Origin: Candidatus Marinacidobacterium sp.
GTDB taxonomy: Bacteria; Acidobacteriota; Vicinamibacteria; Marinacidobacterales; Marinacidobacteraceae
Assembly: GCA_965220965.1 (NCBI GenBank)
Contig: OZ244852.1
Coordinates: 1,152,001-1,216,000 of the forward strand
Direction of reading: 5' to 3'
Length of the DNA: 64,000 nt
The translations under genes were made by a program, and so were the position numbers. The first letter of the stretch is position 1. Each line of letters begins with the position of its first letter. Of this stretch, positions 38,899 to 39,127 are shown piece after piece. The notes beneath the pieces were generated by a model that had not been told where the DNA came from, ran no database searches, and saw only the letters and a program-made list of their open reading frames with translations.

Positions 38899-39114
38899 CC
38901 GACCTGTTCGCCGCGGCGCTCTTTCCCTATCGGAAGTTGAAATCCAGGGGATTTCAACTTCCGGCGCGTGGCGACCTGCTTCGGCGGTCCCGCAGTTCCT
39001 TATCGGAAGCTGGAATCCTCCCGAACTTCGACTTCCCGCGGCGACTTGCTTCCGCGGTCCCACAGTTCCTTATCGGAAGTCTGAATCGTTCCGATTCAGA
39101 CTTCCGATAAGGAA
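38899..39114. repeat. Three ~70-bp tandem repeats, each with an inverted copy of the dif XerC arm
   Basis: TATCGGAAG at 38928, 39001 and 39071; ACTTCC at 38957, 39031 and 39100. Perfect inverted repeats at 38931-38963 (15-bp arms) and 39066-39114 (23-bp arms). Confidence 0.85.
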
Positions 39115-39127
39115 TCTTATGTTAAGT
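39100..39127 (+). other. dif: dif site (XerCD chromosome dimer resolution site)
   Basis: ACTTCCGATAA-GGAATC-TTATGTTAAGT has the 11-6-11 layout. The right arm differs by one base from the E. coli XerD arm TTATGTTAAAT, and the left arm starts ACTTCC as in B. subtilis dif. It is intergenic and AT-rich, and KOPS polarity inverts here. Confidence 0.9.

Follow-up and report, generated by a model that had tools for sequence, protein, structure and literature searches.

We find that the chromosomal dif site in the window, by which is meant the whole stretch of 64,000 nucleotides analysed here (G000:C1:1152001-1216000 of a 2.88-Mb chromosome that is accompanied by a 363-kb second replicon), is adjoined on its XerC side by about 200 bp of XerC-arm copies and hairpins. 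Judged from the comparison of related genomes, this array is a real, inherited and lineage-restricted add-on to dif, with half-sites almost as well conserved as dif itself, and it may have a function in modulating Xer recombination.

dif and the adjoining array in the window

The 28-bp core at 39100-39127 on the + strand is a genuine chromosomal dif, as the preliminary description of this DNA had claimed. It has the 11-6-11 layout, in which two partly palindromic 11-bp arms, the XerC arm at 39100-39110 (ACTTCCGATAA) and the XerD arm at 39117-39127 (TTATGTTAAGT), flank a 6-bp spacer at 39111-39116 (GGAATC). The core is unique, since no second copy of the 28-mer ACTTCCGATAA-GGAATC-TTATGTTAAGT was found in the whole genome at up to six mismatches, and it occurs once per family genome: the pattern CTTCCGATAA-N6-TTATGTNAANT, allowing up to two mismatches, matched exactly once in each of the 28 family genomes, across which its reversed control gave no match at all, and within the class the pattern was matched in 88 of 151 genomes. 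Furthermore, the genome encodes two Xer-type recombinases, whose best models are XerD and XerC with scores of 322-324 bits that lie slightly below the equivalog cut-offs and above the subfamily cut-off, as well as an FtsK with a gamma domain (FtsK_gamma, 79 bits). dnaA, a ParB gene and a parS-like site are found at 2.395-2.401 Mb, so that dif, at 1.191 Mb, splits the chromosome 42:58 and lies roughly opposite the origin. Neither GC skew nor gene-strand bias is strong enough to position the terminus in this genome, and of the 25 most polar 8-mers nine switch within 65 kb of dif, the chance number being about two by our own estimate; none of these three measures placed the terminus cleanly.

A few observations on the surroundings may be added. 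The second replicon (C2, 363 kb) has no dif-like site at up to six mismatches and a single weak tyrosine recombinase match (C2:180595-181062), while two adjacent tyrosine recombinase genes scoring 66-73 bits on PF00589 are found 27 kb to the left of the window (G000:C1:1124440-1125779). A second ParB/ParA pair lies 3-5 kb from dif (window 42436-44065, - strand), an unusual position for a partition system, so close to the terminus site. The part of the window from 50000 to 64000 has a strong positive AT skew (0.18-0.35) and a GC skew of up to 0.10, unlike the rest of it.

The array itself was assigned a period of 70 and 2.4 copies by Tandem Repeats Finder (38923-39094), and when its three units are aligned (38895-38966, 38967-39036 and 39037-39114) the mean column identity is 78%, which bears out the earlier claim of three tandem units of about 70 bp ending at dif. 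Each unit carries, again as had been described, the reverse complement of the XerC arm with part of the spacer and then a forward ACTTCC. Reading along the + strand, unit 1 (38895-38966) consists of a leader, an inverted half-site (38923-38936), a hairpin with 15-bp arms (38931-38963) and the forward ACTTCC; unit 2 (38967-39036) of a leader, an inverted half-site (38996-39009), a decayed inner stem and the forward ACTTCC; and unit 3 (39037-39099) of a leader, an inverted half-site, an inner stem and a loop, with the inverted XerC arm and four spacer bases at 39066-39080. The inverted half-sites of units 1 and 2 agree with that of unit 3 in 13 and 14 of 14 bases, respectively, and among the units 13-14 of 14 bases are shared in the half-site, as against 13-25 of 29 for the leader and 16-18 of 27-28 for the inner stretch. 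The junctions between units fall after ACTTCC, within the XerC arm and away from the Xer cleavage point, and the roughly 70-bp units are non-coding, the array being without any ORF.

Together with 39092-39114, unit 3 makes a perfect palindrome (39066-39114), an inverted repeat whose 23-nt arms (39066-39088 and 39092-39114) are 100% complementary around a 3-nt loop and take in the real XerC arm (39100-39110) along with four of the six spacer bases, just as the preliminary description had stated. It had also held that the first unit forms a perfect repeat in which symmetry is kept through a change of the inner sequence, and this is likewise what is seen: the inverted repeat of unit 1 (38931-38945 and 38949-38963) has 15-nt arms of 100% complementarity and an inner sequence distinct from that of unit 3, and four of the nine pairs in the inner stems differ between the two units, each on both sides and all of them compensatory. 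The hairpin of unit 3 folds as single-stranded DNA with -26.1 kcal/mol (z -12.9) and that of unit 1 with -16.2 kcal/mol (z -6.0), and in unit 2 the hairpin is lost (z +0.5). The array is A+T-rich for the genome, its G+C fraction being 0.56, and 0.43 in hairpin 3, against 0.72 in the window, and the half-sites of the window and its relatives are spaced 41-43, 49-50, 70 or 73 bp apart, that is, out of helical phase.

The copies are confined to this place. The 14-mer TTCCTTATCGGAAG, at up to two mismatches, has four matches in the window, every one at the array, and that number was reached in none of 100 shuffles (mean 0.11 matches); in the whole genome the XerC arm has, besides dif and the three inverted copies, just two other matches at two mismatches, which is about chance level. 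The XerD arm is, as the preliminary description had it, unrepeated, there being no further copy in the whole genome at up to one mismatch and no inverted XerD arm on either side of dif at any of the 54 loci considered below. Contigs from two Logan runs, belonging to two studies and one of them possibly the source sample, each span 38500-39500 with 0 differences, and the runs listed as containing this DNA included none of RNA. A search with a strict, exact pattern in 401 Acidobacteriota genomes, a sample in which families f1 and f11 had no other member, returned the genome of the window alone, and an Rfam search in E-value mode with the window locus and nine related loci gave four chance-level hits and nothing meaningful.

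On the XerC side the array is followed by a small ORF of 92 amino acids that has no Pfam family and a weak coding signal (38569-38847, - strand) and reads away from dif, the next gene beyond it being that of a CitMHS/TrkA_C transporter (36713-38491, - strand); on the XerD side the gene of a PEGA-domain protein (39195-40259, - strand, start codon uncertain) reads towards dif.

Inheritance, conservation and separation in related genomes

The preliminary description had proposed that the dif flanks of related genomes be compared for inverted XerC arms and for variation in unit number, and both are found. Under a common rule for 54 dif loci of the class (the inverted own XerC arm plus 2 nt, a 13-mer, at up to two mismatches and within 200 nt), the inverted arm is present on the XerC side at 20 of the loci and on the XerD side at none, and the reversed control is found at none. 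The number of copies per locus ranges from 0 to about nine, and it varies even within the genus of the window (g1), where extra copies are absent from G001, a single hairpin with 16-nt arms and one mismatch is present in G002, and the window has its three units. In a second genus (g2) a hairpin adjoins dif in 10 of 16 genomes, and several of its arrays are 200-650 bp long, with up to nine inverted half-sites and a higher-order unit of 131-170 bp made of three elements: a hairpin (type A), whose right arm in the last copy is the real XerC arm with 4-6 spacer bases, a free-standing palindrome of two XerC-like arms (type B), and an unpaired inverted half-site with a variable tail (type C). A third genus (g4) has a hairpin with 26-nt arms and an unrelated inner stem, and in a second family of the class (f11) a hairpin with a loop of 16-24 nt and a variable inner stem is found in eight of nine genomes. 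The hairpin is absent from 14-15 of the 28 family genomes and from most other families of the class (0 of 17 other loci). REP/BIME or MITE elements were considered and rejected, as all close copies are at dif and, in five g2 genomes, the type B palindrome is limited to a single locus each.

The inverted copy follows the spacer of its own lineage, reading TTCC/GGAA in g1, ATCC/GGAT in g2, CTC/GAG in g4 and ATC/GAT in f11, such that it holds the first 2-6 spacer bases of its own dif (GGAA, GGAT(GC), GAG or GAT(A)). Between the end of the repeat and the XerD arm there remain 0-2 nt in g1 and g2 but about 3 nt in g4 and f11, and the gap between the two XerC-arm copies is 10-29 nt across family f1. 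At two f11 loci (L104 and L107) the XerD side carries, no more than 200 nt from dif, a forward XerC arm plus 2 nt, perhaps a second site or the junction of an element, and at four hairpin-less loci (L021, L022, L023 and L108) the gene on the XerC side stops 15-43 nt short of dif or extends up to it.

In the dif-proximal 157 nt of g2, aligned for 11 species (three of the 16 genomes, G041, G024 and G022, have only hairpin A, the array of G020 is partly masked and that of G043 was not located, and these five were left out), the arms and half-sites have pairwise identities of 0.82-0.93, the real dif half has 0.92, and the left flank and the tail of type C have 0.43-0.45. The type C half-site is conserved in spite of having no pairing partner. 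The conserved positions of the half-sites, which have a core TTATCG(G/A)A, coincide with those conserved across the class in real XerC arms (TCCGATAA), the variable positions being the outer three. The two g2 hairpins are paired in 89.6% of cells, against 30-45% in slid controls, and four pairs, all in the loop-proximal stem, have changed on both sides; in f11, tested for eight of the nine genomes with the hairpin-less G130 left out, 96.1% is paired and three pairs have changed on both sides. These changes amount to 12 cells in g2, against 3.7 +/- 1.5 in shuffled alignments, and to nine in f11, against 2.6 +/- 1.5, neither number being reached in any of 500 shuffles, although these counts overstate independence because the species are related. 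Each lineage furthermore keeps a position within the paired XerC arm that is not of Watson-Crick type, namely A.C in hairpin A of 10 of 11 g2 species, G.G in hairpin B of all 11, and G.T or T.T in seven of eight f11 genomes. Of strand-specific G-T wobble pairs, the + strand is the better paired in f11 and the - strand in hairpin A of g2, and an RNA form is therefore not singled out.

In six g2 genomes gene-like DNA runs right up to dif. Five of these were searched and have the array elsewhere, three on the same contig at a distance of 35-37 kb and two on another contig, and the sixth (G043) has the same element-like flank at dif and is counted as a probable sixth case. G012 may serve as an illustration, since its array of five 131-bp units terminates in the XerC arm and spacer before unrelated DNA begins, and the site that retains the XerD arm is found without a hairpin at the far end of the insert. 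The array and the site bearing the XerD arm are thus apart in at least five g2 species, and a working dif consequently needs no array. These separated cases, along with the lack of a hairpin in 14-15 of 28 family genomes, show that the array is dispensable for dif. What lies between, in several g2 species, is an integrative element of about 35 kb (loci L071, L076 and L079, G012:C43:65667-101272; also G017 and G019), the two junctions of which share the XerC arm and spacer, and which encodes a RepB-type primase, an ArdC-like protein and, 3-4 kb from the end of the array, a tyrosine recombinase of its own. This recombinase means that Xer cannot be named as the mover, and a classification of the insert as an IMEX was softened for the same reason.

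Outside the class, six loci in metagenome-assembled Clostridia (L049, L050, L054, L057, L058 and L064) have a dif-like site ahead of which lie an inverted-arm hairpin and also a G+C hairpin bearing a T-run. They were considered as instances of the same layout and rejected, since the site is multi-copy and therefore not a chromosomal dif: of the five genomes, three gave 40, 24 and 15 matches where the reversed control gave 4, 2 and 7, and two did not rise above control level. With as many as 40 matches in one genome, frequently paired at a distance of about 100 bp, it is a dispersed, junction-type site.

A possible accessory function and the competing explanations

We tentatively propose that the array is an accessory, foldable region of XerC half-sites that modulates Xer recombination and grows by slippage. 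The three units of about 70 bp would be tandem duplicates of a dif-proximal hairpin module, which consists of the inverted XerC arm with the first spacer bases, is placed on the XerC side and would be able to pair with the real arm. Such an array could supply extra XerC half-sites beside the XerC arm, the binding of which by XerC is reportedly weaker than that of the XerD arm by XerD, and in a folded form, either as single strand behind the fork or as a cruciform, it may sequester the XerC arm and the spacer and leave the XerD arm free, thereby tuning the XerC-initiated strand exchange that is independent of FtsK; the number of units would shift by replication slippage or by unequal exchange between units. 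Binding of XerC to the copies, folding in the cell and an effect on recombination are all steps that we infer from the DNA. A more specific version, in which the dif-templated hairpin is the chromosomal dif's own accessory element and gates XerC-first exchange, seems doubtful by comparison; an extruded cruciform would then resemble the Xer Holliday junction in three of its arms, two of them XerC arms and the third a XerD arm, and the gating might for instance limit the capture of dif by integrative elements or time the resolution.

Several features speak for an accessory region. The copies are specific to one side and one arm (inverted copies at 20 of 54 loci on the XerC side and at none on the XerD side), the half-sites, including the unpaired type C, are the best-kept part, and pairing has been kept through change in g2, in f11 and between units 1 and 3 of the window. 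Likewise, the range of copy numbers, with 0, 1 and 3 in the genus and up to nine in g2, is as would be expected of a slippage-prone array, and by analogy the accessory regions of plasmid Xer sites, also found on the XerC side, may be taken as a precedent for the placement. Two options raised in the preliminary description, extra sites for XerC loading or regulation and a cruciform that gates dif, would both fit the conservation of half-sites together with the compensatory stems. Against an accessory region, on the other hand, may be held that 14-15 of 28 family genomes, like most other families, have no hairpin, that dif is separated from the array in at least five g2 species and the hairpin of window unit 2 is lost, and that the conserved mismatch in the paired XerC arm of g2 would not be predicted by simple selection for pairing.

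The main rival, although an unlikely one, is an intrinsic terminator, an option that the preliminary description had left aside, in which the T-rich XerD arm (TTATGTTAA) would be the U-tract and the inverted XerC arm and spacer would be the stem in a genome of 72% G+C, so that the hairpin would stop transcripts arriving from the XerC side. This would account for the copy being on the XerC side only, and a consensus scan does flag hairpin 3 with the dif tail on the + strand; moreover, no more than 0-2 nt separate the inverted repeat from the XerD arm in the genera g1 and g2, and the XerC-side gene is directed towards dif at 13 of 18 callable loci with a hairpin as compared with 8 of 27 without. 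However, this association stems mainly from g2 and f11 out of about five hairpin lineages (g1, g2, g4, G022 and f11), and while a gene is transcribed into the hairpin in these two, the XerC-side genes point away from dif in the window, where both ORFs are on the - strand, and in the congener G002. In addition, hairpin 1 of the window, unlike hairpin 3, has no T-run after it, nor have the distal type B hairpins of g2, and the conservation of unpaired half-sites (type C and window unit 2) is not what a terminator would lead one to expect. The array might instead be a neutral by-product of replication at a protein-bound dif, which we consider improbable: with a fork coming from the XerD side, the nascent strand would fold back past the XerC arm and copy itself until blocked by bound XerD, giving an inverted duplication that later template switching would keep symmetrical and slippage would multiply. 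Such a route, which at dif is a mechanism that we infer ourselves, agrees with the outer ends of the two arms facing each other, with the repeat stopping at the boundary of the XerD arm, with the copy matching each lineage's own spacer and with the patchy, dispensable nature of the feature, and template switching would give seemingly compensatory changes without selection. It is nonetheless in poor agreement with half-site identities in g2 of 0.82-0.93 against 0.43-0.45 in neighbouring DNA (11 species), with the conservation of an unpaired half-site, and with the persistence in 10-11 of 11 species of a stem mismatch that template switching should remove.

It has also been suggested, in the preliminary description, that the units are scars of repeated Xer-mediated integration, and we regard scars or miniature derivatives of mobile elements, whether of a CTX-type folded single-stranded element or as remnants of the ISAba32 group, as very unlikely. 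The suggestion draws on an integrative element using dif in the window's family and on two parallels: insertions of the ISAba32 group are on the XerC side without exception, at 5-6 bp from the arm, and build up tandem arrays (bioRxiv 10.1101/2022.12.17.520857), and in attP(+) of CTX inverted Xer sites form a hairpin whose XerC-binding stem has a single mismatch (PMC3442271). The units are however free of genes, their junctions fall inside the XerC arm, no XerD arm is paired and nothing resembling one is repeated; furthermore, the distance between the arms varies (10-29 nt in family f1), the copies follow the host's own spacer, and there are no dispersed copies, the two extra arm matches at two mismatches genome-wide being about chance. 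A scan of viral contigs for the hairpin likewise returned eight loci, none of them followed by a XerD arm, and no such hairpin site was thus seen in phages. Equally remote seems a dyad-binding protein of the terminus region other than Xer, with resemblance to the XerC arm merely by descent, since the conserved positions match those of real XerC arms (TCCGATAA) with the outer three variable, and since the inner stems change freely and yet stay complementary, even though such a protein would be consistent with the palindromes and with the conservation of the core TTATCG(G/A)A.

If the array is indeed an accessory region of the kind proposed, a conserved, covarying and foldable set of XerC half-sites would amount to a second kind of control at chromosomal dif, and it would offer a handle both on how XerC-first exchange, the route exploited by integrative elements, is restrained and on whether folded DNA acts at dif. 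Should the hairpin turn out to be a terminator, dif would double as a transcription signal in G+C-rich genomes, a more modest result, of which no description was found in the literature searched.

Relation to known Xer and recombinase sites

In the usual view, chromosome dimers are resolved at a bare 28-bp dif under the control of FtsK, and the sole Xer sites from which accessory DNA is known are those of enterobacterial plasmids. The site described here is like the chromosomal dif of E. coli and B. subtilis in its 28 bp, its 11-6-11 layout, its single copy and the accompanying XerC-like, XerD-like and FtsK-gamma genes, but differs from it by the attached XerC-arm copies and hairpins of about 200 bp. 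In agreement with the preliminary description, to which the layout was new, no description of inverted XerC-arm hairpins at a chromosomal dif was found in the literature searched; in the portions available, PMC9765430, PMC3442271, PMC3025954 and bioRxiv 10.1101/2022.12.17.520857 mention none, and a word search of the dif survey PMC3025954 gave no instance of flanking, hairpin or inverted repeat.

The plasmid sites cer and psi, with their accessory proteins PepA, ArgR and ArcA, resemble the present site in having conserved DNA outside the core on the XerC side. Plasmid Xer sites have their accessory regions on that side, those of cer and psi bind unrelated host proteins and are described in enterobacteria only (bioRxiv 10.1101/2022.12.17.520857), recombination at cer and psi is started by XerC (PMC3442271; bioRxiv 10.64898/2026.02.23.706985), and the affinity of XerC for dif is much weaker than that of XerD (PMC3442271). 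The array at dif is by contrast chromosomal, and it repeats the half-site of the recombinase itself in a foldable form.

Copies of a recombinase's own motif are known from other systems. The integron site attI1 has extra recombinase-binding motifs, DR1 and DR2, on one side of its core. The IRS of Tn4430 has extra TnpI-binding motifs (DR1 and DR2) beside the core, and both sites thus share with the array the placement of recombinase motifs on one side of the core, where they control the reaction; their motifs are however direct repeats without hairpins and reside in transposons or integrons. Insertions of the ISAba32 group (IS1202 family) are likewise found on the XerC side only and in tandem, forming arrays at dif in which the newest copy is nearest to dif (bioRxiv 10.1101/2022.12.17.520857), but they lie 5-6 bp from the arm, make target duplications and have a transposase gene, whereas the units described here have no gene, are variably spaced and are copies of dif itself. 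There is also a likeness in form to attP(+) of CTX-phi, the single-stranded Xer site of an IMEX, in which inverted Xer arms also fold into a stem that presents a XerC-binding duplex, and in which the XerC site of the stem has one mismatch just as it does in g2 and f11. The CTX stem nevertheless pairs XerC and XerD sites and belongs to a phage genome, whereas at the chromosomal dif described here pairing is limited to the XerC arm with 2-6 spacer bases, element genes are absent, and the array is inherited vertically.
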